Part shown: in pieces, positions 1-61,473 of the stretch | How positions within the stretch are numbered: the stretch's first letter is position 1 | Layout of the letters: the number at the start of each line of letters is the position of its first letter | NCBI GenBank assembly: GCA_963838925.1 | Contig: CAWISW010000003.1 | Span: forward strand, 1-64,000 | Length of the DNA: 64,000 bases | Direction: 5' to 3' | Origin: an uncultured Nitrososphaerota archaeon | GTDB taxonomy: Archaea > Thermoproteota > Nitrososphaeria > Nitrososphaerales > Gagatemarchaeaceae | Translations under genes and position numbers: made by a program | The notes under the pieces: generated by a model | What the model was told of the DNA's origin: nothing | The model's database searches: none | The model's input: only the letters and a program-made list of their open reading frames with translations

Positions 1-112
1 ATAGGACGGATGCTGACCGACGCAGGCTTTGCGCCGTCTGACGCGCCTTCTCTTCTCATTCCAACGGGAGGAGCGGTTTGCTTTTAACGGCGGGTGACAC
101 ACTTCGGAAGGT

Positions 113-1036: not shown

Positions 1037-1069
1037 GTGCAATGTCACTCTAGCGACTCGATTCTTGAT

Positions 1070-1711: not shown

Positions 1712-1744
1712 GGAAGTGGCAAGAGTAAACAAAAGTGACGCATC

Positions 1745-2212: not shown

Positions 2213-3191
2213 CTACTATCATGATTACGGGCGTTTTTGATATTTCTCGTAACAGCGGAATTTGATTCCGGGCCTTCTCGGCAAACTCGCTCTCGGTCCA
2301 AAGATTGTAGTTTACCTCGCGTCCCGTCTTCCTCTCAACCTCACTGACTGCCTTCAAGAGCGCGTCTTCGTCCATGTCGGCGACGACGAGCAGGTCGACA
2401 TCACTTCCCTCGTTCTCCGTCCCTTTGGCAAAGGAGCCGTAGATGAGGGCATACTTGACCCGTTCAGATCGCAGCCTGCTCGCGAACAACTCGTCCAAGA
2501 ATTCGTACTTCAGGAATATCCTCTTCAGCTCGTCATATATCACGCTCTCTCTGTTGATCTCGTACAACCTGAGGTTACCCTGGATACTCCTCTTCACCAA
2601 GGCCAGACTCAACAAGAGCGCGCACTCCTTCACCACTCCTGAGGGAGAAACCCCGATTTTCCGCGCGATGTCGTTGAGATGGAACTTTGAGTTGGGATTA
2701 AGAAACAGCAACTTGAGGATCAGGATCTGGGTTCGCGATCTGAACAGCCTCTCAAGCGGGCTCTTCAAGAAGACTGTCTCGCGCGACTTCGGCCTCGCGC
2801 GGAGAATTGCCATCTGAACCGAAGTCAATCCTTCACCGCGTTCGGGCTTCACAGCCTCCATTACGCCGCCATTGACCAGCAGCAGCCCGATGCCGAGGTT
2901 CCTGCAGGCGGTTACGATTTCCTGGCTTCCTCTCTCCTTCGGCACTGCGAGGTAGGCAAGGTTTGTCGCGTGCTTGTAGTGAAGCGTTTGTTCAAGCCCT
3001 AGCTTCAGGTCGCCAAGGTTTCCTTTGACCTCAACCGCCGCGATTTCCTTGTCCTTGATTGCGACAATATCCGCTATCCTCCCCCTTAGCTTCACTTCCC
3101 GTGAGACCTTCCACCCTCTGCTTTCGAAATACTCGGCCACTTTTGACACAATCGCAACTTCTGCGACCAAAGTCAAAGCCCTATTTCTCAT
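2166..3191 (-). CDS. PD-(D/E)XK nuclease-like + winged HTH + minimal nucleotidyltransferase (MNT) fusion
   Basis: N-terminal REVK..ADIVA...AVEVK; central FHLNDIARKIGVSPSGV HTH; C-terminal YGSFAKG-x5-SDVDLLVV. Confidence 0.85.
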   Translation of the reverse strand: MRNRALTLVAEVAIVSKVAEYFESRGWKVSREVKLRGRIADIVAIKDKEIAAVEVKGNLGDLKLGLEQTLHYKHATNLAYLAVPKERGSQEIVTACRNLGIGLLLVNGGVMEAVKPERGEGLTSVQMAILRARPKSRETVFLKSPLERLFRSRTQILILKLLFLNPNSKFHLNDIARKIGVSPSGVVKECALLLSLALVKRSIQGNLRLYEINRESVIYDELKRIFLKYEFLDELFASRLRSERVKYALIYGSFAKGTENEGSDVDLLVVADMDEDALLKAVSEVERKTGREVNYNLWTESEFAEKARNQIPLLREISKTPVIMIVGEESGFKRAIAQRTS

Positions 3192-3265
3192 TTGAGAACA
3201 ATCATTCTCTAAATAGAAATGCAGGTATTAATAAAGCTAGCCCAACCAAGCCACATTCGTCTAGC

Positions 3266-3718
3266 TCAAGGAAGATCGGTTCGGTGAGTCGGCTGCTTCA
3301 CCGTCACCAGAGGAATCCATGATACCGCGACGACTCTTTCAAGTCTTTCGTTCCACTCTGCCTCCTCGCACGCTTCCAGCGAGGTTCCTAGCACCGTAGC
3401 GTCGACGTACCACCCCGGAAAAAATCGCCTTCGAAATCCGGGAAATGCTCTATCTCGGACTAACTGATTTGTCCTTATGATCTTTCTCGGGAACCTCAAG
3501 GCAACGAGTCCCATGTCTATCGCCCAGTTGAGCGCAGCATCTTCCGTCTCCCACAGATACAGCCGGTCAGGGAACTTTTGTGAGTAATATGGCATATCGT
3601 AGTCCGTCTCGAACCCGTGCTTACGCGGAGTCGTGAGGCCATTTTGCGCGATGAGGCCCAGTCTGTCGAATATAGCGGCATGATAGAGAAAATTGTGGAG
3701 CCGTTTCTGGTCGCTCAA
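3266..3718 (-). CDS. Putative ADP-ribosyltransferase-fold protein
   Basis: LYHAA..RL..IAQNGL..P followed by RLYLWETEDAALNWA resembles the H-type ART (Tpt1/DarT-like) pattern; TTG start at 3718 is inferred. Confidence 0.5.
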   Translation of the reverse strand: MSDQKRLHNFLYHAAIFDRLGLIAQNGLTTPRKHGFETDYDMPYYSQKFPDRLYLWETEDAALNWAIDMGLVALRFPRKIIRTNQLVRDRAFPGFRRRFFPGWYVDATVLGTSLEACEEAEWNERLERVVAVSWIPLVTVKQPTHRTDLP

Positions 3719-3776
3719 ATCATTGCAGGCATTTGGTCTAGGCAGGTTTATAAGAATACCCTGGTATGGTCGGGGT

Positions 3777-4010
3777 ATGATAAAGACGACCATCTCGGTG
3801 ACTCCAGAGCTTTACTCGGCCCTGACCCGGGCTGCGCTCGACAGCGGTACCAACGTATCCAGAGAGATTGAGACTCACCTCAGAGAGAGCACCTTCATCC
3901 AGAAGTACATCCAGGAAGTGCGCGGAGAGCCCAACGAGGGCGCTCATCTGCTCAACCCCAAGGCGCTGCGCCCGAAGTCTAAGGTCGCCGCGGCAACAGT
4001 TTCCTCTTAG
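3777..4010 (+). CDS. Ribbon-helix-helix DNA-binding protein
   Basis: MIKTTISVTPELYSALTRAALDSGTNVSREIE RHH pattern; TTTATAA box and ATACC-CT-GGTAT palindrome (3756-3767) upstream. Confidence 0.7.
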   Translation: MIKTTISVTPELYSALTRAALDSGTNVSREIETHLRESTFIQKYIQEVRGEPNEGAHLLNPKALRPKSKVAAATVSS

Positions 4011-4182
4011 GCGTAAGCAAACCCCACTCGGGATCCATGTAAGACGCCCCCATCTCCTCGTACCCCAACACGTCATCGTAATACCCTATGATGTGCTGCA
4101 GAGCCTCCATCCGAATCTCGCTAATGCCCGAGCTGTGGAGCGACGCCGCGCTATCCGCTGATTCAATATCTTGGATCAAGCT

Positions 4183-4449
4183 TCATCGCTTCAGCATCTC
4201 TGCAACAGCCTTTCTAGTGCCAGCCTTGGCCCACTCTATCTCCTCTTTCACCTGCTTCCTGCTCTTTGTCTGCTTCTGAAGCTTCGAGGTTATCGCCTTG
4301 AGCTCGCCTATTCGTTCTTCGCTGTAAAGCGTCCGTTTGATAGCAAATCGAATGAACTCGCTCTTCGACGCGTACTCTCCAGCTTCGACGAGCATCTCTA
4401 TCCTCTCAGAGTCCTTGTCAGGAAGGTTCAGGAGCAGCTTGCTTCCCAT
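4183..4449 (-). CDS. CopG/RHH family antitoxin-like regulator
   Basis: LNLP...IEMLVEAGEYASKSEFIRFAIK is a typical RHH signature. Confidence 0.85.
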   Translation of the reverse strand: MGSKLLLNLPDKDSERIEMLVEAGEYASKSEFIRFAIKRTLYSEERIGELKAITSKLQKQTKSRKQVKEEIEWAKAGTRKAVAEMLKR

Positions 4450-4469
4450 TCTTTCACCTATATGTGATG

Positions 4470-4486
4470 TATATGCACTGCATATA
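4470..4486. promoter_or_regulatory. Perfect palindrome TATATGCA-C-TGCATATA, putative RHH auto-operator
   Basis: 8-1-8 inverted repeat about 20 nt upstream of the RHH start codon. Confidence 0.55.
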
Positions 4487-4564
4487 TTTATTCCTTCATG
4501 AGTTCTCTAGGGTGTTGTTGCATCTTCGGGTGATTTCTGACTCTCTTGCATTCGGGTGATAGAA

Positions 4565-4780
4565 TCAACCGAGTGATATGCTGTAGCCCTGATAGTACAC
4601 CATTGTGTTTCCTCCGTAGCCGAACAGCCAATAAGTTACTGACCCGTAATGATTTAGGCACGTACAGAATCCGGATGTGCAGGGACGATAAACAGGAAAA
4701 CAGGTCGGTTCTACAGGAGCAAGGAAAAGGAATGCTCCGATAGCTACAACGGCAATTAGCAGTACAGCAGCCTTCTTCAT
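4565..4780 (-). CDS. Small Cys-containing membrane/secreted protein
   Basis: 71 aa from ATG 4780 (MKKAAVLLIAVVAIGAFLFLAP...), four Cys, GGAG upstream. Confidence 0.6.
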   Translation of the reverse strand: MKKAAVLLIAVVAIGAFLFLAPVEPTCFPVYRPCTSGFCTCLNHYGSVTYWLFGYGGNTMVYYQGYSISLG

Positions 4781-4914
4781 ATGGACTCCGTCCAATGCCT
4801 GATGACTCCCTTTGAGACCCGTTCTGCATGATTCGTCCGTCCAGTCAGAAAGGCACCAGAACCCAGCTCGGGCCCGGGTTTCAACGTGGCCGGCATCGTA
4901 TCCCGCCTGCTCTT

Positions 4915-5600
4915 CTAAACCCCGGGCTGAGGGATCTCCGCCATGCGCAGGACCGCCTCGCCGCTCTCCTCCTGGTCGAGGCTTTGCAGCAGCTGCAGCA
5001 GCAGCTTCCCGACCGCCGTCAGCTCGTAGATCCTCACGCGGCCGTACGCCGCCTGCTCGTGGACGAACCCGTACTTGTTCAGCATCACCACGTGCCTGTC
5101 GACGGCCTTCCAGTCCAGCCCGAGCTCCTGTGCGAGCTGGAACCTGTCCTTGGGTATCAGCAGCGAGTTGAGGAGCTTCACCCTCGTCTTCCCGCCCCTC
5201 ATCCTCACGAAGAGCTCGAAGACCTCGGAGTCGAAGCCCAGAGCCTCCCACCTCGACTTCATCCTGCCCCTCCAGATCCACAGCCCGCCGACGAAGACCC
5301 AGCTGCCGGGGGCGAGAGCGAAGGAACGGTTCCCGAAGAACTGGAGGATCAGTGCCGGGATCGAAGGCGAATGCCCCCCCACTGTCGAGTAGGAGAAGCC
5401 GTTGCAGAGGACAGCCCTGCGGCGTCGCTGAATGTGGCGCTGGAGTTGGAGGCTGCGGGCACGCCCGACGTGGTCGAGAGTGTGTTCTGGACGCTCGGGC
5501 TTGGTGGTGAAAGGAGCTGCGCTCCGGCGAACGCCGTGCTCACAATCGCGAAGCCCAGCGCCACTGCGAAGAGAACTGCGAACCTGGACAACCTCGTCAA
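4915..5600 (-). CDS. Probable membrane-tethered ArsR-like winged-HTH regulator (frameshift at ~5374-5410)
   Basis: 5600-5349 frame: N-terminal TM plus Ser/Thr-rich linker. 5382-4915 frame: hydrophobic GSWVFVGGLWIWRGR, then GGKTRVKLL...QLAQELGLDWKAVDRHVVML wHTH. A C7 run lies at 5374-5380. A stand-alone wHTH from ATG 5262 is an alternative. Confidence 0.7.
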
Positions 5601-5616
5601 AAAACTCCTTTTTGTG

Positions 5617-5656
5617 ATAAATACTTTTGTCCGATTGTGTGGACGAAGCCTTTTAT
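5617..5656. promoter_or_regulatory. Back-to-back divergent promoters, each with GGAC-N6-TATA element
   Basis: Minus strand ATCGGAC-AAAAGT-ATTTAT (5635-5617); plus strand GTGGAC-GAAGCC-TTTTAT (5639-5656). Confidence 0.65.
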
Positions 5657-5688
5657 CGCGAAAACTACCCGCTCATCGGTGACGCCTG

Positions 5689-6316
5689 ATGAGGAGGGTC
5701 GTCGGCTATCTTGTCATCTCGATACTCGTCGCCCTGCTGATAACTGGCACTACGTTCTTCGGTTGGAGAATTCGTGATGGCATCGGTTTCCGGCGGGGCT
5801 GGCGGGAGCGCAAGCGCCACTGTCTCGGGCTTTCCGATTCCCTACGCGACGTTCTTCCCCTGCTGCAGCGGCAGCGGCGGTCCTGGCGGCTCCATCTTCT
5901 TGAACAACACTTACTACTATCACCCGCTGAGCTTTGTCGCGGACTTCACGATCTGGCTCGCGATATCGCTGGCGGTCGTCTTCACGCTCACTCTCACAAC
6001 ATTGGTGCTGGCTGCGACCGCGGGGCTTGGCGTGACTCTCCTCACGTTGCTGTTGCCTCCTTTGTCAACAGTAGCGCCAACACCTGCCCTTGAGACCGCG
6101 GTCCTTAGACCGATGGGCTTTCCTTACGATTATCTGACCTACTACGTCACTGGGCTTGGCGGGGTCACAAATTCAGGCTATGAGTTCGCGCTTTCGCCAG
6201 CCCTAGCAGATTATGCGCTGTGGACTGCGTTGACAGCCGCTCTCATTGGAGTAATGGTCACGATACTGCGAGGGAGGCACGTCAAACCAGCCAATTCTAA
6301 CCTGCGGCCATCGTAG
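5689..6316 (+). CDS. Multi-pass membrane protein (frameshift at ~5760-5775)
   Basis: TM-rich 5689 and 5774 frames join; internal repeat GFP.PY/GFPYDY ... ADFTIW/ADYALW. Confidence 0.65.
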
Positions 6317-6362
6317 ACCCAATCTCGACGGGTGGAAGATACCGGTTACAGGACTACGCCGC

Positions 6363-6382
6363 GTTCGGACAAATCTATTTAT
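6363..6382 (+). promoter_or_regulatory. GTTCGGAC-N6-TATA element
   Basis: GTTCGGAC-AAATCT-ATTTAT upstream of the beta-propeller gene. Confidence 0.7.
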
Positions 6383-6435
6383 GATGAAAATTGCTTTCTA
6401 GATTCAATCATCTGGTGCGATAGTAGACGAGGTTT

Positions 6436-8230
6436 ATTACAAACAGAACTCTTTCAATCACGCTTGCAATCTCTGCTCTAGTCATCGTCGGAGCCGCGGC
6501 GGCAGTCAGCTCCCTTATGTCGTCGAACCCCATAGGTTCCGCCCAGCAGTCCTCGTCCGCATCAACGAACAGCATCACTCCTCCACAATGTTCGGCACCC
6601 TGCGCAGTCTGGACAAGAGCCGGGGGAAGCAACCCCGAATATGTCGCAATATCTCCAGACGATTCCTTTGTAGTAGCCGCTGTAGCAATCGCCAATGGCT
6701 CGGAGATCTACGCTCTCGACGACCACGGCAACACGCTCTGGAGCCACGACCTGGATCACCAGATTTCATCCATCGCCATATCTTCCAACGGCATGTACGT
6801 CGCCGCAGGCGGGTGGCAGATCGAGCCTGGGCCAGCAGGCATCTACGCTAACGGCGAAGTCTACCTCTTCAGCAGCGGCGGGAAGCTGCTGTGGAGCATG
6901 AATGCCGGGAGCAGCAACCCTGTGTTCAAGGTCGCCATCTCTGCCGACGGGTCGAAGCTCGCGGTGGACGGAGAAGAGAGCATGATGTACCTGAGCGGGG
7001 CGGACGGAAGCACGATCTGGTCGTACCACACCGGAGGAAACACCGTCGGCATGGGCATGTCTCTTGACGGAAGCCTGGTCGTCGCGTCGATGGGGCCAAT
7101 AGTGGCGTTCAACGGCCAGGGGGCAATGCTCTGGAGCCATCCCGCGCAAGACCTCGCTGTAAGCGTGAACAGCGTGGCCATCTCCTCCGACGGGTCGCGA
7201 CGTCTGGGTCGGATCGGCGGTGAGCGGGACCAACGGCACCCTGTACCTCTTCAACAGACAGGGAAGCCTCATCTGGCAGCATCAGATATTCAGCCCCGCC
7301 CTATCGATACAGACCGCCGCAAACACGACCGCTTTCATCTCGACGAACTTTGGCGCTCTGGTCTATGGAGCGGACGGCTCTCTATTGAAGAATGTGACCA
7401 GCTCCGCGGCTGCTGCGATTACCGGAGCGTGCAACCCCCTCCCAAGCTTCTGGTACTGGAGTACGAACGAAGATCCGGTGGCTTTCCTCGACACCCATGG
7501 GAACATCGTCTCGAGCTACAACCCCGGTGGCTTTACTGTCAACGCCGCATTGTCTTCCGACGGGAGTTACGCGGCGGTTGTCAGTACCATAGGATTGAGC
7601 TCAAACTACTCGCTCGCATTCGTGTACCTTGGGCAACCTAACCAAAACTGTCTTCAAACGACGACAACATTGTCGTCATCCACCGGCATTGCAACAGCGT
7701 CCGTCTCGAACTCGTCCGACGGGCTCAGCCTCAACCTCCAGGTCCTGCCCGGTGGCAACGGGACCTTCACGGTAACGGCATACGAGTCCAACCTCCTCAG
7801 CTCCGTGAACAACGTCACCGAGGCGAACCAGTGGAAGTATCCCGCCGACCTTCTGAACCCCGCCAACAACTGCGCTCCCACCAACGATCCAGTCGGGTTT
7901 GCAATCTTCCAAGGATACTACGGCATGAGCAACTACACTTCGGGGAAAGCCCTGCCCCTCTACAACACCAACGTCGAGTTCCACTGCACCGAGAACATCT
8001 ACGCGAATGACTACCTGTTCCAACCCCTGAGTGACAGCATCTCGGTCTACAACCATGGTCAGTTCGAAACGAATGGCACCGCCTCCCTCTCGCTCTTGAC
8101 AGGTGGCTATTGGACTGGAGGGGCGGGCACGGCAGTCGCAGCCTCATTCAGCGAGTTCCGTGGCGTCTACACCGTGCTAGCGGCCGACGAGTGGGGAAAC
8201 GTGCTCCTGCTCCACTTCACGGTGGATTGA
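6436..8230 (+). CDS. Membrane-anchored WD40/PQQ-like beta-propeller surface protein (frameshift at ~7200)
   Basis: Repeated VAIS.DG and G..LW motifs in the 6517 and 7220 frames; in-frame TM upstream of ATG 6517 suggests an ATT start at 6436 after GAGGT. Confidence 0.75.
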
Positions 8231-8239
8231 TGGGCGCTT

Positions 8240-8990
8240 ATGGAAAACCAGGATCCCCGGAGTCATGTCAGGCTCGTGGCGTCCATAGTCCTCTTAGTTG
8301 TGATAGGAGCCAGCCTTATCGGCGCCGCCTACCTGCGGACGAACCCGGCCGCGGTGAGTACGAGTACCATAACGACAACGAAACTGTCCACAACAGTAAC
8401 CAAGTCGATCACAGTGACAGCGCCTTCCAACTCCACCACATCCCTGCTCTCCCACAGCAACTACGACGACGGTAGTTGATTATGGCTGCGGCATCTCAAG
8501 TGCTTCTTCGAGAGTCTCAGCTCTTGTCCTCGTCAATACGAGCAGTGCCAGCAACGTCAACGTCGATGTGGGGGTCAGCCCGACGCTTCCGCTCACCGCT
8601 TCCGCCTGCTCGTACACCTACACGAACACCACCACACCGGTTGCCTGCGGCGTGATGTGCGGCGGCGGGATAGGGTATACCTACTCTCTTGACTATGTCT
8701 GGAAGCTGAATTTCTCCCTGAGTTCGCCCGATAGCCTTGGGAGCTACAACCTCACAATCACCTCGGGAAGCGGAATGGGCGGTCTCTTTCCCAAACAGGG
8801 CAATCAGATATACCTGAACTCGCAGCAAATGACCTCTTGGTATTCGAATCCGCCCTGCTACGGTGGAGAGGGGATAGAAGCCGACTGTATGGCATCTAAC
8901 GCCACGTCGATGGCGATCGAGCTGCCGACCCCGGTCGAAAGCGGCACCTATCAGCTCGTGGTCAGTTCGGGCGTGTACCTGGTCCCATAA
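8240..8990 (+). CDS. Membrane-anchored secreted Cys/Ser/Thr-rich protein (frameshift at ~8470)
   Basis: N-terminal TM plus Thr-rich linker (8240 frame) continuing into the 8568 frame. Confidence 0.6.
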
Positions 8991-9029
8991 GAGGAACGAA
9001 AATTGAGCCGTCACGTGAACAGCGATCCC

Positions 9030-9049
9030 GCTCGGACAAAACTATTTAC
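9030..9049 (+). promoter_or_regulatory. GCTCGGAC-N6-TATA element
   Basis: GCTCGGAC-AAAACT-ATTTAC upstream of the 9101 gene. Confidence 0.65.
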
Positions 9050-9100
9050 TCTTCTGACGGAGGTTTCGTTCATCTTGCTCAAGGCCGACAATGCGAATGT

Positions 9101-10591
9101 GTGATGGATATGAGGACAAGTCGAAGCGTGCTCGCGTTCGTGGTTGCAGTGCTGATCGTTATCGCAGCGTACGTCGCAATCTCGATGTCTGCGCCGCAAT
9201 CGCCGTCCTTGCCACAGACGACCCAGTCGACCACGCCCTCGTCCAGCGTCACGAGCGTTAGTGCTACTCGCTCGCCAGGCCCCAGCGGCCCCTTCATGAA
9301 TTTGTCTCAGGTGTACGTTGACCTCGGCTATCCAAACGTGACATACTCACAGTCCTCTCCATATCTCCCGAGCAGACCGAATGTCACGCTGGAATACCAG
9401 ACAAAGGACGTGAATTACCAGCTCGGCGTTCTCCAGACCCCCGTCATCAATCTCACTAGAGCTCTAGAGTCTGTCAGCGATTCCGGAGCTCTGCTCAACG
9501 GCACCAACAACTCGAGCTCCGGTTTCGCCCTTGTTTCTGCAGATTTCGAGCCTGGTCAAGTCGTGAATTCGGCTCTCGAAGCCCCACCGACATGGGATCT
9601 CTCTTTCGCCCGAGTCTACGATGGCTACTGGGTCTTCGGCGAATACGGAGTCGGTGACTCCTCTGCGTTCGTGAGCGTGGATGCGTTGAACGGCACCGTC
9701 ATCAAGACATCGGTCGAGCCTGCTGCAGACACACCCGCCCCCGCGTCGGGGACGAAGTTCGACCTGAATGTCAACGAGTCCCAGGCGCTCCAGGTCATCC
9801 GCGGAATCACTCCAACGCAAGGCGTACCGCAAGACTTGACCCGAAATGGGACGGTGAGCCTGATCCAACCGATGATCGTGCTCTTCGGGCCTTCGTCCAA
9901 GAATGAGGCGTTCCAGACACCCCTTGATCCTTCTCTCTCAGGCCAGGAAAGACTCTGCTGGGTGGTCGAGATGTCCTCGCCGACACCTGGAGCCGGATAC
10001 CAAGGGAGATTTGCCGTCGATGCGGAGACAGGAACGCTGGACTCGGAATGGGCTCAGGCCTTGTACCCCTCGACTGCTGAATACTACATCACCGGCTCCG
10101 CCGTTCTTCCTTCGTCATCTTCGCCTTCACCCAACAACCTGACGATGTCCCAGGAGACCTTTCAAATCAACGGGAGCGTGGTTGGGCGACCCGGTTTGGT
10201 ACCAGTCGTCGTTCCGAACGTCCTGATAATGAAACCTGGGTCCTCGGCGATGGTCGGCCTCAACTTCACTTCGACGTTCGCAGTCGAAAATGTGACTGTA
10301 TCGCCCCAGTCCTTTTCCAACCCGCTGCCTGGGTTCCAGAACCTTTCTTCTGATGGCCTTCCAGCGGGAGTCTCTGCCCAATTCCTCACAGCAAGCGTGG
10401 TCGTCCCGGCGAACGGGAATGGAATAGCCACGATTTCAATCTCGGCCAACGAAAGCGCACCTTCAGGGACGTACCTGTTAAAGCTGAACGCGGCCTGGTC
10501 GAACATCGCTGGAGGCCAGAGCTCTGTGGCTTTCCTTCTGACCATCTGGGATGGTACGGGCCAGTGGCCACCGCCCCCGACCGTAAACTAG
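9101..10591 (+). CDS. Membrane-anchored secreted protein with two PepSY-like segments and a C-terminal Ig-like domain
   Basis: N-terminal TM; FVSVDALNGTVI and FAVDAETGTL motifs; ISANESAPSGTYLLKL. Confidence 0.7.
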   Translation: MMDMRTSRSVLAFVVAVLIVIAAYVAISMSAPQSPSLPQTTQSTTPSSSVTSVSATRSPGPSGPFMNLSQVYVDLGYPNVTYSQSSPYLPSRPNVTLEYQTKDVNYQLGVLQTPVINLTRALESVSDSGALLNGTNNSSSGFALVSADFEPGQVVNSALEAPPTWDLSFARVYDGYWVFGEYGVGDSSAFVSVDALNGTVIKTSVEPAADTPAPASGTKFDLNVNESQALQVIRGITPTQGVPQDLTRNGTVSLIQPMIVLFGPSSKNEAFQTPLDPSLSGQERLCWVVEMSSPTPGAGYQGRFAVDAETGTLDSEWAQALYPSTAEYYITGSAVLPSSSSPSPNNLTMSQETFQINGSVVGRPGLVPVVVPNVLIMKPGSSAMVGLNFTSTFAVENVTVSPQSFSNPLPGFQNLSSDGLPAGVSAQFLTASVVVPANGNGIATISISANESAPSGTYLLKLNAAWSNIAGGQSSVAFLLTIWDGTGQWPPPPTVN

Positions 10592-10642
10592 ATGCAAAAC
10601 CTACAACCCTTAACAATCTCAGCAAGCGCCCACAATGAGGCC

Positions 10643-11274
10643 GTGCAGCTATCGAAGAACGTGAGCAGGGGGCTCACCTACGTCCTCATCGTCGTCGTCA
10701 TCGTGGTCGGGGCGCAGCTCCTCGTGGGGAGCGCGCTCGGGTCCTCCCCTGTCTATGTGGTCGTGAGCAAGAGCATGGTCCCAACGCTCCAGATAGGCGA
10801 CCTCGTCATAACCCAGAACGTGCCGTTCAGCAGCATCCACGTCGGGCAGGTGATAGTCTACGTGAAGCCCGACTCGCTCGGCGCGTGCAATGGCGAGACG
10901 ATAGTGCACAGGGTCGTGTCGGGGTCACTGCTCAGGGGCTGATCACCCAGGGAGATGACAGGGTGACCAACCCGCAACCCGACCCTTGGAGCCCGATCCC
11001 GGCGAACTGCGTCAAGGGTGTAGTCGTCCTGGCAGTCCCCTACCTGGGGCTCGTCTCGATGCTCATACCCTACCCGTGGAACTACGTCCTCGTCGGGCTG
11101 ATCCTGCTCTTCGTCTTCCTTACGGAACTGCGCCCGTCAGGGAAAGAAGGTGAGAAGGTCGAGGGCAAGGGTGGCGGAACGGCCTTCTTTGACTGCATCC
11201 GGACCTTGAGTTCTGCGAGAGTAGCCAAGCCACTGAATTCTAACATGCGGAGTCACGTTCGGACAAAACCTTAA
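10643..11274 (+). CDS. Signal peptidase I (S26B/Sec11 type; frameshift at ~10925-10940)
   Basis: VVVSKSMVPTLQIGDLVI (catalytic Ser), IVHRVV (His), ITQGDD..TN..PDPW. Confidence 0.88.
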
Positions 11275-11276
11275 TA
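11211..11276 (+). repeat. ~60-bp inter-gene repeat copy A, ending in the GTTCGGAC-N6-TATA element
   Basis: 50/60 ungapped identity (counted by hand) to 12720-12779; partial copy at 6281-6308. Confidence 0.8.
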
Positions 11277-11307
11277 CAAAATTCAGGACTTTACGACGCG
11301 AATTTGG

Positions 11308-12702
11308 TTGAAGACTGGGCCCGAACCACGCACACGTCATATGAGAGCGTACGTCTTCGTGCTCATCGTTCTCATCGCCTTTGGCGCGGTGGGCGGCCTG
11401 GTCTTCCTATCACACCGTAGCGGCCCCCCTGTCAGCAGCCCAGGACCCTACGGAACGGGCGGATACCCTGGCGTCTCCCCGCTTCCTGCGGGAGTCGTGG
11501 GGAGCGTCCCTGAGATACGAGTCAACTATGGCAACGGCGTATTCTCAGGCGAGCAAGGGCCGTACTGCTGGGCGGGAAACGCGGCCACGAACCAGGTCAC
11601 GACTGCTGCAGGGGGCAGGTGCGTCTCCTCCGCACCCCCCACGAATTCGACCGGTCTGCCGACCATCGCCGTTTACCCCAACGCTCGCTTCTCGTTCGGC
11701 TTCACTTACCAGCAGCATCCGGAGAGCGTGGAGGCGTCAATCTTTCAGTCAGGATCCATGGAGGTGGTAATGACAAACTCATCTGCCATCAACGGGTTCT
11801 CCCTGGGCTCGCTCCCGGCAGGGAACTACATCATGGGCGTCAACGCGTCCTTCGGTCGCTCCTACACGTCTGAATACTATGGGATCAAGCCGATAGAGTC
11901 GGCGAACTACAGCGAGGGGAGCATCGCCATATTGAATCGCGGGGAATCAGATGAAATGAAGTCGATTACCCAACCCGCGGGAAACGCAGGCTCGGTAGGC
12001 GGCATGACCGTCAGTTTCCCGGGCCTCATGATCTACCACCTTACTCTTTCGTCGGCCAACATGGTCGAGGACGTGAACCTGAGTGCAATCAGCGTGATCA
12101 CCGGGGACTGGGTTAGGTTCATCCCGTCGTATCTCCCTGAGGTGGGCCCGAGCGGCACGGATGCTGACATGCTCGTGGCCGGCGCTTTCGAGCTTTCGTC
12201 CCCCGGCAACGACGCCAACGTCTCCATGATAATCCAGGCGACGACAAGCGGCGGCAGCTTCGGGGAGGTTGCCCTGCCGATGCAGGGTCAGGACAGCTTC
12301 GTCGTCTTGCACACCCTCGCCACCGGTCAGGAGTTTCAGGGGGGCGGGATCTCGGCGACGCCAGGCCAGACGAACTTCGGCACCGAGTCGATCATCTACG
12401 ATCCCGCGAGCGGGGGTTCCAATCAGTCCCTTCCCGTCGCGGTGTCGATCGCAGGGTTCTTCGGCGTGAACGGCTCGGTCCTGCCCCAGCCCCCTTGGCT
12501 GAAGTTCTCCGTGCCGGGGTCTTCGACGAACCTGTCCATGACGCCCTACGACCCGCTCTACTTCGCGCTCGACATGACCGCGACGAGCGCCGCGCCGCTG
12601 GGGTCTTACACCCTCGTCGTCGACGTTGAAGTCGGGACCGGGAGCCTCACGCTCTTCATACCGGTCGAGGTAAACCCGCCTGTGTATTCAGCCGCTGGCT
12701 GA
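11308..12702 (+). CDS. Membrane-anchored secreted protein, paralog of 59813-61300
   Basis: N-terminal TM; shares GEQGPYCWAGNA, GLPTIAVYPNA and GDWVRF.PS.LPEVGP with the 59813 gene. Confidence 0.8.
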   Translation: MKTGPEPRTRHMRAYVFVLIVLIAFGAVGGLVFLSHRSGPPVSSPGPYGTGGYPGVSPLPAGVVGSVPEIRVNYGNGVFSGEQGPYCWAGNAATNQVTTAAGGRCVSSAPPTNSTGLPTIAVYPNARFSFGFTYQQHPESVEASIFQSGSMEVVMTNSSAINGFSLGSLPAGNYIMGVNASFGRSYTSEYYGIKPIESANYSEGSIAILNRGESDEMKSITQPAGNAGSVGGMTVSFPGLMIYHLTLSSANMVEDVNLSAISVITGDWVRFIPSYLPEVGPSGTDADMLVAGAFELSSPGNDANVSMIIQATTSGGSFGEVALPMQGQDSFVVLHTLATGQEFQGGGISATPGQTNFGTESIIYDPASGGSNQSLPVAVSIAGFFGVNGSVLPQPPWLKFSVPGSSTNLSMTPYDPLYFALDMTATSAAPLGSYTLVVDVEVGTGSLTLFIPVEVNPPVYSAAG

Positions 12703-12719
12703 CTTGCCAGAGCGAGGGA

Positions 12720-12785
12720 TTCTGCGACAGTGGCCAAGCCGCCCAATTCCAACGTACGGCGTCACGTTCGGACAAAACTATTAAT
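12720..12785 (+). repeat. ~60-bp inter-gene repeat copy B, ending in GTTCGGAC-AAAACT-ATTAAT
   Basis: Matches copy A at 11211; contains imperfect inverted repeat TCC-AACGT..ACGTT-C-GGA. Confidence 0.8.
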
Positions 12786-12819
12786 CGTGAACACCCCGTT
12801 TTGACACTCGTGTAGGAGG

Positions 12820-13137
12820 ATGAATAGGAAGACTCTGCTGGGAATAACGTTCCTAGTTGCCATCATAGGTGCAATGCTCGTCATCTTCGGTGCCGTCTAT
12901 ACGGTACTGCCCTGCACCACCGACAGCGTGCTTTATGGCTATCCGATCTGGAGTCCGCCTTCATTTAGCGGGATTCAAGGCTGCGGCAACCTTACAACTC
13001 CAGTGGGCCTTCCAAACGGCATTTCAGTCAACTACACGTTGAACTACATAGGCATCGCAATCCTTCTCACAACCATAGCAATGCCCCTCGCATCATGGAG
13101 TTCGAAACAGAGTATTCGTACGGGGGGTCTCGAATGA
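12820..13137 (+). CDS. Small two-TM membrane protein with a Cys pair in the loop
   Basis: 105 aa, two hydrophobic helices, GGAGG directly upstream. Confidence 0.7.
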   Translation: MNRKTLLGITFLVAIIGAMLVIFGAVYTVLPCTTDSVLYGYPIWSPPSFSGIQGCGNLTTPVGLPNGISVNYTLNYIGIAILLTTIAMPLASWSSKQSIRTGGLE

Positions 13138-13200
13138 TTAGGCACGCGGCAAACAGCCAGTCGATATCGAGCAATCCTTCAAAGAAAGTGATGAACCACA

Positions 13201-13494
13201 GTGAAGTCGCGCAAACATGAGATAATCGTCTGGGGTTGGAAGGAGTCTGTCCCAATAGCCAGGATAGTGGCCGCTATCAATAGGCTAGAGACACAAGTCG
13301 ATCTCTACGAGATAGTCGATAAGACCTCAGATGCCTTTGCGATCATCCTTGTGCGTCACAGCATTCTCAAATCAAAGGAGAAGAAAAGGGCAGAGGTTCT
13401 TGCGCTAGTGAAGAGGAGATTCCCAACTGCGACTGATGTAAGACTGCATAAGGGAGACGATTGGAACGGCGTCACTAACCAAGTCAGCAGTTGA
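13201..13494 (+). CDS. Hypothetical protein
   Basis: 97-aa ORF in a lower-GC segment. Confidence 0.45.
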   Translation: MKSRKHEIIVWGWKESVPIARIVAAINRLETQVDLYEIVDKTSDAFAIILVRHSILKSKEKKRAEVLALVKRRFPTATDVRLHKGDDWNGVTNQVSS

Positions 13495-13590
13495 GGCCGA
13501 AAGGCGTGAAGCCGAGCGCCTCCTCTTCGTCTTGGCCATGCCCTCTGGGGCGCAATCCCCTATTAACGCTGGGGCTCGAACGCGGGTAGA

Positions 13591-13608
13591 GCGGGCCCGA
13601 CGGGATTC
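13591..13608 (-). mobile_element. att-like core resembling a tRNA 3' end (probably tRNA-Arg)
   Basis: Minus strand GAATCCCGTCGGGCCCGC = T-loop end + T-stem + acceptor CGGGCCC + G discriminator, overlapping the integrase stop codon. Confidence 0.6.
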
Positions 13609-14902
13609 ATACGGGAAGCTTGAGAATCGCTCTGTCATCAGGGAGGGAAGCGACGTACTCCCACCCTTGCTTGATGTATTGCTCTACCTCCCCCGCATGG
13701 ATGACCTTCTGCCTTGATCCGTTGTTGGCCATGGCTCCAAGCAGCTTCTCCCTCACCATCTTCTGAAAGTCCTCGTCCTTGATGCCCGACAGGTCAAGCT
13801 TGTCGACGTCCTGCTGGCTGTAGCCGGCGACCTGCATCAGGATCTCCCTCCTGAAGGACTGCTTGATCTCCTCCTGGCTCATCCCCCGCTTCCGCAGCAT
13901 TATCGTGACCGCTTCCATCCCCTTGAGATAGAACTCCCTCATCTGGTCTTCCGTGTATCGCCTGTACGCGGAGTCGAGGAAGAGCTTGTGCCCCATCAGC
14001 GCCTCGGCTATGTCCCTTCCCAACGGCTGCAGCATCTGCGTGAAGAAGAACTTCCTCAGGCAGTGGATGTGGATGGTAGCCCTCCCTTGGTCGTCCTTCT
14101 CCCCCAGTCCAGAGTTCTTCAGCGCCAACGAGAAGATGTGGTCCGCGTTCCAGTAGGACATCGGGAGGTTACCGGTCTTGTGCTCCTGTCCACGGGTTGA
14201 CGTCGGGAAGATGTAGTCGCCGGGATTGTTGATCCGGTCGAGTAGGAATTCCTTCAAGAACGTGACCGCCTCGTCGCTGATGAAGCAGTACCTCGGCTGT
14301 CTGTCCTTTGTCACCTCTGCCCTAAGGTGTATCGTCGCTGGGCTCTTGGACAGATCGATGTCCTTCACTCTGAGAGTAAGGAACTCTCCCACTCTCATCC
14401 CGCTCGATGCAAGCATCGTGACAAGGGCCTTTCCGCGGGCATCGGTGTGCGTGAGAACGCTCCTGAGCTCTTCCTGCGTCGGGACCCTGTCGACGGTGAC
14501 CGCGTGATACCTGGGGAGGTCGACCTTCACCCTCATCTTGGCGTTGTCCAGCTCGAAGTCATTTATGGCGAGGAACTTCTTCACGGCCGAGAGCCGGTTC
14601 CTGAGGGAGTTTGGCGCGAACTTGTCCTTGAGCATCCAAGCCACGTATCCGTCGATGACCTTGTAGACGTCGTTCTTTCTCATGTAGGCCAGGGCGTCGT
14701 TAGGCAGCATCTCGAGGTAGCTGCAAAAGTCCATCATCCCTCCTGTAGAGTTCTCGACGCTCTTCTTGGAGCCGCGCCTCCCCACCTTCTCCAGGTAGGT
14801 CTTGAGCTGAACGACTGCCTCGCCCCGATGATCTCTCCTCCACTCGTACGCCTTCCTGTTTAGGACCTTCATGCAGGTCGGGAGGTTGGTCCCAACCCGC
14901 AT
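13607..14902 (-). CDS. Tyrosine recombinase/integrase
   Basis: SGMRVGE (R), TKD (K), HIHCLRKFF (HxxR), LMGH and AY (Y) catalytic motifs. Confidence 0.93.
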   Translation of the reverse strand: MRVGTNLPTCMKVLNRKAYEWRRDHRGEAVVQLKTYLEKVGRRGSKKSVENSTGGMMDFCSYLEMLPNDALAYMRKNDVYKVIDGYVAWMLKDKFAPNSLRNRLSAVKKFLAINDFELDNAKMRVKVDLPRYHAVTVDRVPTQEELRSVLTHTDARGKALVTMLASSGMRVGEFLTLRVKDIDLSKSPATIHLRAEVTKDRQPRYCFISDEAVTFLKEFLLDRINNPGDYIFPTSTRGQEHKTGNLPMSYWNADHIFSLALKNSGLGEKDDQGRATIHIHCLRKFFFTQMLQPLGRDIAEALMGHKLFLDSAYRRYTEDQMREFYLKGMEAVTIMLRKRGMSQEEIKQSFRREILMQVAGYSQQDVDKLDLSGIKDEDFQKMVREKLLGAMANNGSRQKVIHAGEVEQYIKQGWEYVASLPDDRAILKLPV

Positions 14903-43330: not shown

Positions 43331-43418
43331 TGGTGCGGGAGGTGGGATTCGAACCCACGAACCCCTAAGGGATTGGAACCTCAATCCAACGCCGTTGGCC
43401 ATGCTGGGCGACTCCCGC
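43331..43418 (-). tRNA. tRNA-Leu(GAG), CCA encoded, no intron
   Basis: GCGGGAG acceptor, TTGGA-TTGAGGT-TCCAA anticodon arm, long variable arm, GTTCGAATC, ACCA. Confidence 0.95.
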
Positions 43419-51520: not shown

Positions 51521-52108
51521 CTAGGGGGCCGGCGAACCGACCACGGTCATGTAGACGACGTTCGAGGTCGCCGTCGTGCCATCGGAGAAGGTGATGATCG
51601 CGTAGACATCGTGCTGGCACGGTTGCGGGTTGGGGCACGCGGTCAGGACTGTCTCCCCAGCGTTCCCAAAGCCAAGCACGTAGGTGCGCCCCGTGGAGGT
51701 GACGTTCCATGGGTTGGCGTCCTGAGGGTTCCCGTCGAAGACGGTCTTGATCATGGTCGGGGTGAGCGAGTTGGGTACGGTCACCTGGACGTTGATGGGC
51801 TGCCCGTAGGTGTAGTAGAGGGTGTTGCCGAGATGCCCGTCCGCGCACGTGACCCCCGCCGCCACGTCGCCCGTCGTCCCCACCAGCACGGGGCCGGAGA
51901 CGATCGTGATCGTTTGGCTCGAGCTGCTCCCGGCGCACGTCTGGGTCGTGGTGGTGGTCGTCGTGGAGGTGGCGGACGTGGTGTGGGTCGAGGTCGTGGT
52001 CGTGGAGCCGCCGAGGCTGACCACTAGGACGGCTGCGACGACTATCACGAAGACTACGACGACAGCAATCCAGATGATCGGCCTTCTGCCCGGTGCGGGC
52101 TTCGCCAT
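51521..52108 (-). CDS. Membrane-anchored secreted Thr-rich, Cys-containing protein
   Basis: N-terminal TM, poly-Thr linker, four Cys. Confidence 0.75.
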   Translation of the reverse strand: MAKPAPGRRPIIWIAVVVVFVIVVAAVLVVSLGGSTTTTSTHTTSATSTTTTTTTQTCAGSSSSQTITIVSGPVLVGTTGDVAAGVTCADGHLGNTLYYTYGQPINVQVTVPNSLTPTMIKTVFDGNPQDANPWNVTSTGRTYVLGFGNAGETVLTACPNPQPCQHDVYAIITFSDGTTATSNVVYMTVVGSPAP

Positions 52109-52138
52109 CGAGCTTCGACTGGTCAGAGCCGCGTCGAT

Positions 52139-52158
52139 TTATTTAATTCTATCCGAAC
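52139..52158 (-). promoter_or_regulatory. GTTCGGAT-N6-TATA-like element
   Basis: Minus strand GTTCGGAT-AGAATT-AAATAA, 31 nt before ATG 52108. Confidence 0.5.
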
Positions 52159-59812: not shown

Positions 59813-61300
59813 TCAGCCGGCGGGGCCGCCCATGGATATCGGGGCACCGACCTCAACAGGTGCGAAGAGCGTCATGCTCGCGCTGCCCACCTGGACCTCG
59901 ATTACCAGCGTGTATCCGCCGAGCGGAGCGGAGGTCGCGGTGTAGTCGCCAATGGCGAACTCGAGCGGCTGGTATGGGGCGATGGACAGGTTGGTCGAGG
60001 ACTGGGGGACAGTGAACTGGAGCCAGGACGGTAGCGGGACTATCGCGCCTCCCGCCTCATACAGGCCCGCGATGGAGACGACGACCGGCAGGGACTGGTT
60101 GGCTGGAGGGCTCGGAGGGTCGTAGATTAGCGACACGCCGCCGAAGTTCGTCTGGTCGGCCGCGGACAGCCCCCAGGTGGGGGTCTCGAAGTCCTGGCCG
60201 GAGGCGAGCGAGTGGAAGACCACGGCCCCGCCGGCGCCCTCCAGCGGCAGCCCCACCTCGCCGACGCTCCCACCGCTCGCGGACGCCTGGATTATCATCG
60301 TGACGTTGCTGATGTCGTTGTTGACGAAGGGCCTGACCGCGCCGGAGAGGAGCATGTCAGCCTCCGTCCCGTTGGGGCCCACCTCTGGGAGGAACGAGGG
60401 GAGGAACCTCACCCAGTCCCCCCTTATCACGCTGATCGAGCTCAGGTTGACGCTGCGGACCACGGTGGGCGAGGTGAGAGTCAGCGGCCACGTCTCGAGG
60501 TCGGGGCCGCTTACGGTCGTCTGGCCCTGCGAGCTAGGTGCAGAGCCACCTGCGGGCTGGGTAAGCGATGTCATCCGGACCGAGGGTGAGCCTATCGATA
60601 TGGAGATGCTTCCCTCGGTAAAATTGACGGACTCTATCTGCTGGATCCCGAAGTAGTCAACCGTGTAGGAGTGGCCCCAGGTCGCGTTGACCTTGAGGAT
60701 GTAGTCGCCGGCAGGGAGGATGCCGAGCGCGAATCCAGAGATTGAGGAGGGGTTTGACGCGACGAGGCTCATCGACCCCGACTGGAAGAGTGAGGCGGCC
60801 AGGGTCAGCCCCGTCATGCTGACGAAGGACGCTCCGCCAAAGCCCACGTAGATGTCCTCGGGGAACTGGAATCCCAGCGTGGCGTTGGGGTAGACTGCAA
60901 TCGTCGGGAGACCGCTCATCTCCGTTGGGGAGGCGGCGGAGTGGCATCCTAAGGCCGCGGTCGTTCCAGCCTGGACGGTCGTCGCGTTCCCGGCCCAGCA
61001 GTAAGGACCTTGCTCGCCCGCGAACGGCATGTTGTCGTACTCCGCCACTATCTCCGGGGCGTTCCCCAGGAGCGAGGGAGGTAGAGGCGGTACGCCACGC
61101 TCGGAGGGCGGCGCCGTCCCGGTCTGGGTCCCCGTCTGGTTTGTCTCAGTAGAATAGGGTCCAGGGGCTGTCGTCTGGGCTGGGGAGGGGTGGTTGGTCA
61201 CGAAGAAGACGCCGCCGGCAACGGTCACCCCGACGAGAATCGTGAGCACGAACAAGGTCGGGCCGGTCAGGCGGGGACGGGGCGGGGGCGCGGTGTCCAA
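59813..61300 (-). CDS. Membrane-anchored secreted protein, paralog of 11308-12702
   Basis: Colinear shared motifs along the whole length. Confidence 0.8.
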   Translation of the reverse strand: MDTAPPPRPRLTGPTLFVLTILVGVTVAGGVFFVTNHPSPAQTTAPGPYSTETNQTGTQTGTAPPSERGVPPLPPSLLGNAPEIVAEYDNMPFAGEQGPYCWAGNATTVQAGTTAALGCHSAASPTEMSGLPTIAVYPNATLGFQFPEDIYVGFGGASFVSMTGLTLAASLFQSGSMSLVASNPSSISGFALGILPAGDYILKVNATWGHSYTVDYFGIQQIESVNFTEGSISISIGSPSVRMTSLTQPAGGSAPSSQGQTTVSGPDLETWPLTLTSPTVVRSVNLSSISVIRGDWVRFLPSFLPEVGPNGTEADMLLSGAVRPFVNNDISNVTMIIQASASGGSVGEVGLPLEGAGGAVVFHSLASGQDFETPTWGLSAADQTNFGGVSLIYDPPSPPANQSLPVVVSIAGLYEAGGAIVPLPSWLQFTVPQSSTNLSIAPYQPLEFAIGDYTATSAPLGGYTLVIEVQVGSASMTLFAPVEVGAPISMGGPAG

Positions 61301-61331
61301 GCAAGCTCATGGGGAAATGAGCCTCCGTTTT

Positions 61332-61351
61332 GTATAAGGGTTTGTCCGAAC
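61332..61351 (-). promoter_or_regulatory. GTTCGGAC-N6-TATA element
   Basis: Minus strand GTTCGGAC-AAACCC-TTATAC, 32 nt before TTG 61300. Confidence 0.7.
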
Positions 61352-61473
61352 GGGACCAGGGCTTCACCGGGTTGGGTGTCTCGAACTGTCCCATCGAGTA
61401 CCTGATGCCCCGGCCCGGACGCGAACTTTGCTCCACAACCTCTAATTGTCTCCTCGCGTTCAAGCGGCAAGTC

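Follow-up and report, generated by a model that had tools for sequence, protein, structure and literature searches.

Which factor reads a short DNA element that recurs, at a fixed distance from the TATA box, ahead of surface-protein genes in an uncultured archaeon of the Gagatemarchaeaceae? The question is raised by positions 4,915 to 13,137 of the window, the 64,000-nt stretch that forms the first 64 kb of contig C3 (CAWISW010000003.1) in a genome of 1.84 Mb (G000; three contigs, C1 to C3; 61% G+C). The genomes of relatives are numbered in the same manner (Gnnn) and their loci are labelled Lnnn. A first-pass annotation of the window had proposed that either the adjacent membrane-tethered winged helix-turn-helix (wHTH) protein or a specialised transcription factor B (TFB) controls a cell-envelope regulon through this element. 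The comparative evidence favours the first candidate. We estimate a probability of roughly 0.65 that the family of this protein, which combines a wHTH domain with two transmembrane (TM) helices (wHTH-TM), is the reader of the element and serves a sub-regulon of envelope genes. A dedicated TFB, on the other hand, found no support in the helices with which TFBs read the B recognition element (BRE) or in the counts of genes for TFB and the TATA-binding protein (TBP).

All nine copies listed in the first-pass annotation are present in the sequence. Seven of them are strong, including six exact copies of the 9-mer TCGGACAAA. This 9-mer occurs 16 times on the two strands of the genome, and the window, which represents 3.5% of the genome, holds six of the 16. 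Comparison of the genomic copies revealed a TATA-like box at a single fixed offset behind 13 of the 16, consistent with the fixed spacing that had been predicted for the element; the exact copies that lack a TATA box at that offset are at C1:289687, C2:276815 and C2:98373. The 13 TATA-linked sites form two groups, both on contig C3 (Table 1). A scan with a position weight matrix (PWM) identified 23 sites of at least 12 bits, all on C3 except for C1:256613(-), which is inside a called gene, and weaker candidates included C3:634830, 369347, 388603, 359348(-), 200782(-), 52155(-) and 709138(-). The genome-wide tally by PWM was 13 strong and about 7 weaker sites, and the element heads approximately 14-20 transcription units in G000 and more in some congeners. 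The pattern TCGGACAAANNNWTWW matched the genome 12 times whereas its reversed control had no match. Thus, the exact 9-mer counts, the fixed offset and the empty reversed control reject a chance origin of the copies. A search of the window that allowed one mismatch was uninformative because it returned 12 matches when 12.4 were expected. The copy at 5639(+), GTGGACGAAGCCTTTTAT, is a degenerate second arm arranged back-to-back with the copy at 5634(-). The copy at 52155(-) is weak and lies 47 nt ahead of its open reading frame (ORF), and the one at 50773(-), TAGGACAAACATTAAT, is poor, with an altered core and an AT-rich box closer than the standard spacing, and does not belong to the regulon.

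The element is distinct from the ordinary core promoter of the genome. Genes were called with our own crude codon-usage scorer (1809 genes, 86% coding) and their upstream regions were aligned by expectation-maximisation, with 185 of the 1026 regions (spacer of at least 60 nt) scoring above threshold. The general consensus in G000 was aaaa-N3-TTWAWWa, with an AT-rich peak about 28-37 nt before start codons. In the promoters with the element, AAAA and TT(T/A)A align without gaps with the A-rich BRE and TTWAWW in this general register, and the five CGGAC positions carry 0.01-0.06 bits of information in the 185 aligned general promoters. Thus, TCGGAC, which lies 8-13 bp ahead of the TATA box and abuts a BRE/TATA core of normal type, is an extra element upstream of a normal core. 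The same low information content led us to reject the ordinary BRE of the lineage as an explanation, and the element, absent from the general consensus, is confined to few promoters, just as the first-pass annotation had supposed.

The genes behind the element share features of proteins destined for the cell envelope. All 13 exact TATA-linked sites, and the site at C3:200782, are followed by an ORF with a basic N-terminus and a hydrophobic helix, with a Ser/Thr-rich stretch after the helix in most of these 14 cases; the start codons are 33-83 nt downstream of CGGAC. For background, a simple hydrophobicity criterion assigned an N-terminal helix to 392 of the 1809 called genes, 87 of which are also Ser/Thr-rich. 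An upstream element of at least 13 bits by PWM at positions -100 to -20 was found for 5 of the 87 genes with both features and 6 of 304 other N-terminal-helix genes versus 1 of the 1415 remaining genes, counts that rest on the crude gene calls and that miss true targets such as 6427-8230 and the ORF behind C3:363784. The element thus favours genes for proteins with an N-terminal helix, yet only about 11 of 391 called N-terminal-helix genes carry it and so it marks a sub-regulon rather than the entire envelope regulon. The earlier view of a cell-envelope regulon is narrowed accordingly to a subset of envelope genes, and the statement that every downstream gene encodes a membrane-anchored or secreted protein holds for eight of the nine copies but not for 50773(-), whose 177-aa ORF has no N-terminal helix.

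Most of these promoters do not appear to have been inherited together with duplicated genes, an origin that we rejected for most sites because BLASTP matched only three homologous pairs among the 16 downstream proteins of G000. There are local exceptions: the promoters at 11259 and 12768 share a 59-nt repeat, and those at 6365 and 380287 are alike beyond the conserved block. Pfam matches among the products were few and included PQQ-like beta-propellers (6427-8230 and C3:367080-368792) and a DUF4349-PKD protein encoded divergently from the second regulator gene. A promoter of this class also precedes a homolog of the PMT_2 dolichyl-phosphate-mannose protein mannosyltransferases (1.2e-9) in a relative (L009, G011:C1). 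As all five PMT_2 matches of G000 are away from the sites, we rejected this link to glycosylation and do not regard PMT_2 as a conserved regulon member.

Comparisons with relatives resolved a conserved block of 26 nt, GT-TCGGAC-AAAA-CT-ATTAAT-CAnAAA. In a draw of 20 relatives, the pattern was present in all 12 congeneric genomes, with 1-18 matches each and none in the genus for the reversed control, and in only one of eight other families of the order, where two matches in an AT-rich context resembled chance hits. A survey of the family (97 genomes) recovered the pattern in 21 of the 22 genomes of the genus (reversed control, 0-1), the single congener without it having a genome of 0.9 Mb at 59% completeness. 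The sister genus g11, represented by a single genome, had 7 matches and the other eight genera had 0-2 matches per genome (in g18, for example, 5 of 55 genomes had any). By sequence comparison, therefore, the element is restricted to one genus and its sister genus. Across 46 unique sites outside G000, information was high only between -2 and +23 and approximately zero on either side. All but one of the 46 sites have an ORF of at least 60 aa behind them. Of these 45 ORFs, 38 satisfy the N-terminal-helix criterion and begin 32-71 nt from the T of TCGGAC. The other seven are a regulator gene close to the threshold (L004), three ORFs that were probably chosen wrongly (L007, L011 and L018), a chance match in another family (L017) and two orthologous helix-less proteins at 82-84 nt (L028 and L030). 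A variant, TCGGACATAACTATTA, had 19 matches in G041, 14 in G010, 10 in G011, 9 in G002 and 6 each in G037 and G001, while the genome pattern search found none in G000, G007 and G044; at 14 of the 18 unique sites of the variant (TCGGACATA/TCGGACATAACTATTA) the downstream ORF has an N-terminal helix. The TCGGACATAACTATTA sites share islands with regulator paralogs.

The candidate regulator is encoded at one end of the array. ORFs 5349-5600(-) and 4915-5382(-) jointly code for a first TM helix (TM1), a Ser-rich stretch, a second TM helix (TM2) and a winged helix with the recognition helix DWKAVDRHV. The ortholog in G043 (94% identical) is one intact frame, and G000 has an intact paralog as well (C3:379344-380234(-), 60% identical), whose own promoter carries the element. 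The 17 aligned family members all share one plan, in which the outside loop measures about 20 to 200 residues, a basic N-terminus comes before TM1 and the sequence WRGRxRSRW after TM2. Basic flanks are located on the cytoplasmic side of the membrane according to the positive-inside rule, and these two features therefore place the wHTH domain in the cytoplasm. The best matches to the DNA-binding domain were to ArsR/SmtB-Phr regulators and to PF25213 (HVO_A0261 N-terminal domain), all of them under the curated cut-offs. PF25213 was the only family retrieved with the wHTH part in the Pfam scan (E 8.5e-4, 19.6 bits versus a cut-off of 35), the NCBIfam matches were to HTH_metalloreg (E about 1e-3, 19 bits versus a cut-off of 55) and, weakly, to ArsR-like and Csa3-like families, and the closest PDB entry by family profile was the ArsR-family regulator 2p4w (E 0.027). 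Unlike these proteins, however, the wHTH-TM family has two N-terminal helices and a Ser/Thr-rich loop. A search of 5.8 billion proteins yielded 121 clusters of homologs, whose names, where given, are 'hypothetical' or generic (MarR, HxlR or ArsR); many carry the precomputed Pfam label PF25213.

The phylogenetic distribution of the family overlaps with that of the element. The family profile retrieved 33 loci from a public genome collection, all in records of Nitrososphaerota, Nitrososphaerales, Nitrosopumilales or Thaumarchaeota or of archaeon metagenome-assembled genomes, and among them 'Candidatus Gagatemarchaeum stordalenia'; from this spread we place the window's genome among the Gagatemarchaeaceae-like Group I.1c Thaumarchaeota. 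Strong matches to the regulator (E<=1e-19) were present in 21 of the 22 genomes of the genus, in the one genome of g11, in 1 of 6 genomes of g12, 1 of 3 of g17 and about 14 of 55 of g18; none was found in eight other families of the order, where the best E value was 5.5e-6 (G015). The genera rich in the element coincide with those that have DRH-type proteins. Furthermore, the element is in the promoter of the regulator gene itself, as first noted for the window, in both G000 paralogs and at 21 of the 33 public loci. A small protein with one N-terminal helix (MKKAAVLLIAVVAIGAFLFLAP...; 4565-4780(-), inside the longer ORF 4565-5281) adjoins the regulator gene in the window, and a small one-helix protein also adjoins the regulator gene in G007 (C1:1333748-1334029).

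The case for this protein as the likely reader draws on the promoters of the regulator genes. There, two inverted copies of the element are separated by a spacer that is 4 nt throughout, as in TTTGTCCGA-ACGT-TCGGACAAA, the half-sites being 10 bp apart centre to centre. For 68 distinct family members, 66 of them scorable, up to 1100 nt of upstream sequence was searched for a 9-N4-9 repeat immediately ahead of an AT-rich box. Palindromes with at least 7/9 complementary positions were found at 40 of the 66 loci, with at least 8/9 at 19 and with 9/9 at 11, where several different sequences form perfect palindromes; 18 of the 19 loci with at least 8/9 were unmatched by any of 100 shuffles and the other one was equalled by a single shuffle. 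The half-site differs between classes of recognition helix, and both arms change together around the same N4 spacer. Helices of the type DWK.VDRH are associated with the half-site TCGGACAAA, DWK[AS]IDRQT (DRQT) with TCGGACATA, DWKAVDYH (DYH) with TCGGAATAA and DW[KR]EVDRE with TCTGGGAAA. For the other classes, the half-site or palindrome is TCGGAACAA (DWKAVNYH), TTGTTCAGA/TCTGAACAA (DWRAIDYH), TCTGACTAA (DWRAVDQH), TCGGGAAAA (DWTTVDYH), TTTTCCAGA/TCTGGAAAA (DWTTVDYQ), TTTGTCGGA/TCCGACAAA (DWNVADRN) and TTTGTCCCA/TGGGACAAA (EWKAVDRH). Among the loci of the first scan that have an element, all 12 DRH helices are paired with TCGGACA and all 9 DYH or DYQ helices with TCGGAAT, and later loci extended both the DRH and the DYH sets with no crossover. 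Ten of the 12 matches to TCGGAATAA that looked real are at promoters of DYH-type genes; G000 has neither a DYH-type gene nor a TCGGAATAA match. The substitution of Tyr for Arg alongside that of A:T for C:G at position 6 of the half-site would fit a base-contacting residue.

These observations are consistent with a mechanism in which the wHTH-TM proteins of G000 (window 4915-5600(-) and its paralog at C3:379344-380234(-)) recognize a lineage-specific half-site, (nCGT)TCGGAC(A), that is fused at invariant length to the A-rich BRE and TATA box. The products are N-terminally anchored or secreted proteins, mostly Ser/Thr-rich, together with the regulator itself and one signal peptidase I encoded behind a target. 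A dimer could occupy the two inverted half-sites of the regulator's own bidirectional promoter and mediate autoregulation. At target promoters, where a single half-site adjoins the BRE, the protein, once bound, could touch TFB/TBP, a contact that would most likely help recruit these factors and activate transcription. The outside loop may, in turn, make the output depend on the condition of the envelope. What we infer from comparing sequences is that the protein binds, which way it regulates, to what signal it responds and that it also serves the single half-sites.

Several observations weigh against this interpretation. About 80 of the 87 genes for proteins with a helix and Ser/Thr-rich stretch have no element, and the regulator gene of the window is out of frame, with a 1-nt gap near 5407 relative to the G043 ortholog. 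Twenty-six of the 66 loci have no palindrome of at least 7/9; truncation or frameshift of the gene or the end of a contig accounts for part of these, the rest being unexplained. The helix and half-site classes are clades and, therefore, represent few independent changes (roughly 8-10 classes); moreover, orthologous promoters would stay alike under any constraint, whatever the reader. The inverted pairs also double as bidirectional promoters (in G007, the gene for a small membrane protein is 47 nt from the distal arm), and thus their symmetry could partly reflect two promoters rather than a dimer, although the constant N4 spacer and the concerted changes of the arms speak for one dimer serving both promoters. 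In addition, conservation at target promoters extends to the TATA box and on to CAnAAA, which an upstream activator alone would not require, and the core promoter hardly departs from the general consensus, an uncommon trait in promoters that depend on an activator. Because of this near-consensus core and the conserved stretch behind TATA, the protein may repress transcription or recognize the promoter jointly with TFB/TBP instead of activating.

The alternative that fared best, though we consider it unlikely, restricts the wHTH-TM proteins to autoregulation and assigns the single half-sites to another factor, for example the soluble HTH_45 protein encoded at C3:383279-383590. The distal arm sets the two types of promoter apart: in G000, its complementarity is 6/9 and 8/9 at the regulators' own promoters and 1-3/9 at the 11 other sites, as expected for targets with a single half-site, and the distribution is bimodal in relatives. 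The DYH class has almost no regulon outside its own locus, and the gene for the HTH_45 winged-helix protein is head to head with the target at C3:383214(-). Yet the half-site, the CGT prefix and the distance to TATA are identical at own and target promoters, the element-rich genera coincide with DRH-type proteins, and we saw no other regulator gene recurrently beside the sites, a point on which no systematic search was made.

Somewhat less probable still is a specialised TFB paralog, with or without a TBP paralog, that recognizes the entire block as an extended BRE/TATA/downstream element, the wHTH-TM gene being a mere member of the regulon. Such a TFB-specific promoter class would have a parallel in alternative sigma factors and would account for the invariant TATA spacing and for the conservation of the TATA variant and CAnAAA. 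Genomes of the order encode 2 to about 15 TFBs and G000 encodes four, one of which (C3:299.7-300.3 kb) is on a long branch (0.45 versus a median of 0.068) and another in a clade that otherwise holds only a TFB of the sister genus. The tree (21 TFBs from six genomes) was nevertheless a weak test, with the long-branch TFB of G000 unplaced. Genera without the element are equally rich in TFBs (4-5 in G053, G097 and G025; 3-4 in G034). Furthermore, the C-terminal helix that reads the BRE, whose base-touching residues we take from the TFIIB/TFB literature, is GVTEVTIRNRYKGL in all clades but one; the exceptional helix, EVTEVTVRNRCRE, is shared with genera without the element, and the long-branch TFB has SITEVTLRNRYKGL. 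A specialised TBP was rejected because G000 has a single TBP gene (window 49601-50158(+)), compared to three in G007 and two each in G097 and G025. Finally, TFB reads roughly 7 bp upstream of TATA in the structures, leaving TCGGAC, at 8-13 bp, outside its reach, and a TFB would leave unexplained why the half-site changes in step with the neighbouring wHTH-TM subfamily.

The weakest alternative, which we regard as improbable, dispenses with a dedicated regulator and proposes a strong constitutive promoter module spread with cassettes by duplication or recombination in variable surface-protein islands: nearly identical copies (TCGGACAAAACTATTA, TCGGACATAACTATTA) cluster in islands, the window island has a lower G+C content and an integrase gene, a repeat enters two promoters and the G043 promoter orthologous to 6365 drives a different gene, but the flanks of the 46 sites are uninformative, the downstream proteins are mostly unrelated and none is of virus type, congeneric species keep the block with orthologous proteins only about 55-65% identical, and variation of the half-site follows that of the neighbouring regulator gene. 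Recombination does spread the promoter cassette locally. A provirus or mobile element was likewise rejected as the source of the promoters, since the PHROGs matches for 10 island proteins were limited to the integrase, a metallophosphoesterase and one family of unknown function. At the G043 locus (L154, G043:C13) the promoter is directly ahead of a homolog of 8240-8337 and the propeller gene is absent; genes seem to have been exchanged behind conserved promoters.

By analogy, the wHTH-TM protein would work like a membrane-bound one-component regulator, and its architecture sets it outside the ArnR and ToxR/CadC families. ArnR and ArnR1 of Sulfolobus acidocaldarius are described as membrane-bound one-component activators of the archaellum promoter (PMC6396743). 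As far as that description goes, ArnR is likewise an archaeal HTH regulator with two membrane helices that acts on promoters of surface structures, through inverted-repeat boxes (TCGAC-N5-GTCGA) upstream of BRE/TATA (PMC6396743). It differs, however, in having an N-terminal HTH, HAMP and sensor domains and two C-terminal helices, whereas the order here is TM1, loop, TM2 and wHTH, and its boxes are in a fragment from -43 to -84, whereas the half-site here abuts the BRE at a fixed distance (PMC6396743). This distinction is drawn from the described architecture; the Pfam scan found no HAMP domain in the wHTH-TM protein. In the bacterial regulators ToxR, CadC and TcpP, which often control promoters of envelope genes, an OmpR-type wHTH (Trans_reg_C) at the N-terminus is followed by one helix and a folded periplasmic domain. 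Like them, the candidate is a one-component, membrane-tethered winged-helix protein with a putative sensing part outside and a predicted promoter-binding part in the cytoplasm; unlike them, it has two helices, a low-complexity loop and an ArsR-like, C-terminal wHTH, without a Trans_reg_C match in the Pfam scan, and it would operate on the TBP/TFB machinery. The analogy to ToxR/CadC made in the first-pass annotation may thus be retained for function only, and the one to extracytoplasmic function (ECF) sigma factors breaks down because the system lacks a sigma/anti-sigma pair. The archaeal activators Ptr2, TFB-RF1 and EarA occupy sites immediately ahead of the BRE and recruit TFB/TBP; they are soluble and have few known targets. 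The site directly upstream of the BRE and the likely recruitment of general factors are shared with the candidate, which is, in contrast, membrane-tethered and of another family. We know of no series of recognition helices and half-sites across paralogs reported for these three activators. EarA is also mentioned in the report on ArnR (PMC6396743).

A more ambitious and tentative reading joins these elements into an envelope-sensing system. The regulator family, known to date from Group I.1c (Gagatemarchaeaceae-like) Thaumarchaeota alone, would have a Ser/Thr-rich and probably glycosylated loop that imitates the stalks of the target proteins and reports on the state of secretion or glycosylation. 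Helix and half-site could have diversified into orthogonal pairs (TCGGACA, TCGGAAT, TCTGGAA, TCCGACA, TGGGACA and others), one of which may have been recruited to dozens of surface-protein promoters in one genus. Searches of the literature on Gagatemarchaeaceae, on thaumarchaeal BRE, TATA and transcription start sites, and with the motif strings found no description of the element or of the protein family, and the main text of the principal genomic paper on the family, supplements aside, does not contain the word 'promoter' (PMC10640624). Gene regulation in Thaumarchaeota is almost unexplored and, with no cultured member, comparative genomics is the sole access to it in the non-ammonia-oxidising soil lineages. 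The analysis provides a testable regulon, with a 26-nt promoter block, a set of surface genes, a named candidate regulator and a predicted DNA-reading residue, and the palindrome and helix series across paralogs opens the way to specificity swaps with soluble domains that need no cultivation. If correct, the proposal would add a second architecture of membrane-bound transcription factor in archaea and a lead to surface remodelling in abundant soil archaea.

Table 1. Coordinates of the promoter sites and associated genes (window positions unless a contig is named).
Feature	Position	Strand	Sequence or description
First site group, exact TCGGACAAA	5634(-), 6365, 9032, 11259, 12768, 61349(-)		
Second site group, exact TCGGACAAA	C3:360313, 363784(-), 368876(-), 378831, 380287(-), 383214(-), 387614(-)		
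wHTH-TM gene	4915..5600	-	TM1, Ser/Thr-rich loop, TM2 (LAPGSWVFVGGLWIWRGR), C-terminal ArsR-like winged helix
Extended promoter of wHTH-TM gene	5612..5637	-	AATCGGAC-AAAAGT-ATTTATCAC; arm of back-to-back pair
Degenerate second arm facing gene 5689	5639..5660	+	GTGGACGAAGCC-TTTTATC
Membrane protein gene divergent from wHTH-TM	5689..6316	+	two overlapping frames, 5689-6093 and 5774-6316
Extended promoter	6362..6387	+	GTTCGGAC-AAATCT-ATTTATGATG; 33.3 bits
Surface protein	6427..8230	+	N-terminal helix, Ser-rich stretch, PQQ-like beta-propeller; frame change near 7200
Two small ORFs	8240..8990	+	8240-8479 (N-terminal helix, Ser/Thr-rich stretch) and 8568-8990; no own element
Extended promoter	9029..9054	+	GCTCGGAC-AAAACT-ATTTACTC; 33.0 bits
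496-aa surface protein	9101..10591	+	N-terminal helix, Ser/Thr-rich stretch; no Pfam family
Archaeal-type signal peptidase I (S26)	10592..11274	+	Peptidase_S26 3.9e-6; TIGR02228 2.3e-14, above cut-off; two overlapping frames
Extended promoter	11256..11281	+	GTTCGGAC-AAAACC-TTAATACAAAA; 25.5 bits
464-aa surface protein	11308..12702	+	N-terminal helix; paralog (50% identity) of 59813-61300
Extended promoter	12765..12790	+	GTTCGGAC-AAAACT-ATTAATCGTGAA; 35.1 bits; best fit to genus consensus
105-aa small membrane protein	12820..13137	+	
195-aa protein behind weak copy	51521..52108	-	N-terminal helix, Thr-rich stretch
Weak copy, membership uncertain	52136..52158	-	GTTCGGATAGAATTAAATAA; 13.9 bits
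495-aa surface protein	59813..61300	-	N-terminal helix
Extended promoter	61324..61352	-	GTTCGGAC-AAACCC-TTATACAAAA; 26.8 bits

Further details of the locus emerged from the feature map. The distal arm of the regulator's promoter at 5612..5637(-) has 6/9 complementarity, and the orthologous promoter in G043 is conserved. The gene for signal peptidase I starts at the stop codon of the gene for the 496-aa surface protein and, therefore, is probably in an operon with it; the two small ORFs at 8240..8990 are probably co-transcribed with the gene upstream. In the propeller gene, the N-terminal helix is coded upstream of the first ATG (6517), with no ATG, GTG or TTG past the stop at 6424, and an ACG occupies the place of the TTG start in the similar N-terminus of the C3:380234 gene. 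The 59-nt direct repeat (11211-11269 and 12720-12778, 85% identity; also 6283-6307) extends into the two promoters and, at 10885-11274, coincides with the 3' end of the frame for signal peptidase. In G043, a related stretch is found ahead of a promoter (L154 4538-4660). At least five genes within 16 kb are split over overlapping frames (5407; 5689-6316; about 7200; 10885-10942; 15484-15590), which may reflect assembly indels or real decay.

The first 14 kb or so of the window has a G+C content of 0.53-0.59 compared to 0.61-0.68 beyond. This stretch ends at a tyrosine integrase gene (13607-14902(-); Phage_integrase, 4e-18), which adjoins a glutamine synthetase gene read as two overlapping ORFs (14931-15590 and 15484-16401). 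Positions 1-14902 may represent an island or integrated element that runs past the start of the contig. A search of sequencing runs listed none with RNA for positions 4900-13200. Rfam had no match in the region 4915-13137, its sole match in the window being a tRNA (43334-43418). This Rfam match confirms the tRNA-Leu called by ARAGORN at 43331-43418(-); a 95-nt 'tRNA-???' with a two-base anticodon, called by ARAGORN at 45632-45726(+), has no Rfam confirmation. The second promoter cluster of G000 contains, beside a target, a gene for a RecA/KaiC-like ATPase (C3:376492-378743(-); Rad51, 1.3e-17), which a 408-aa gene with no Pfam family overlaps.

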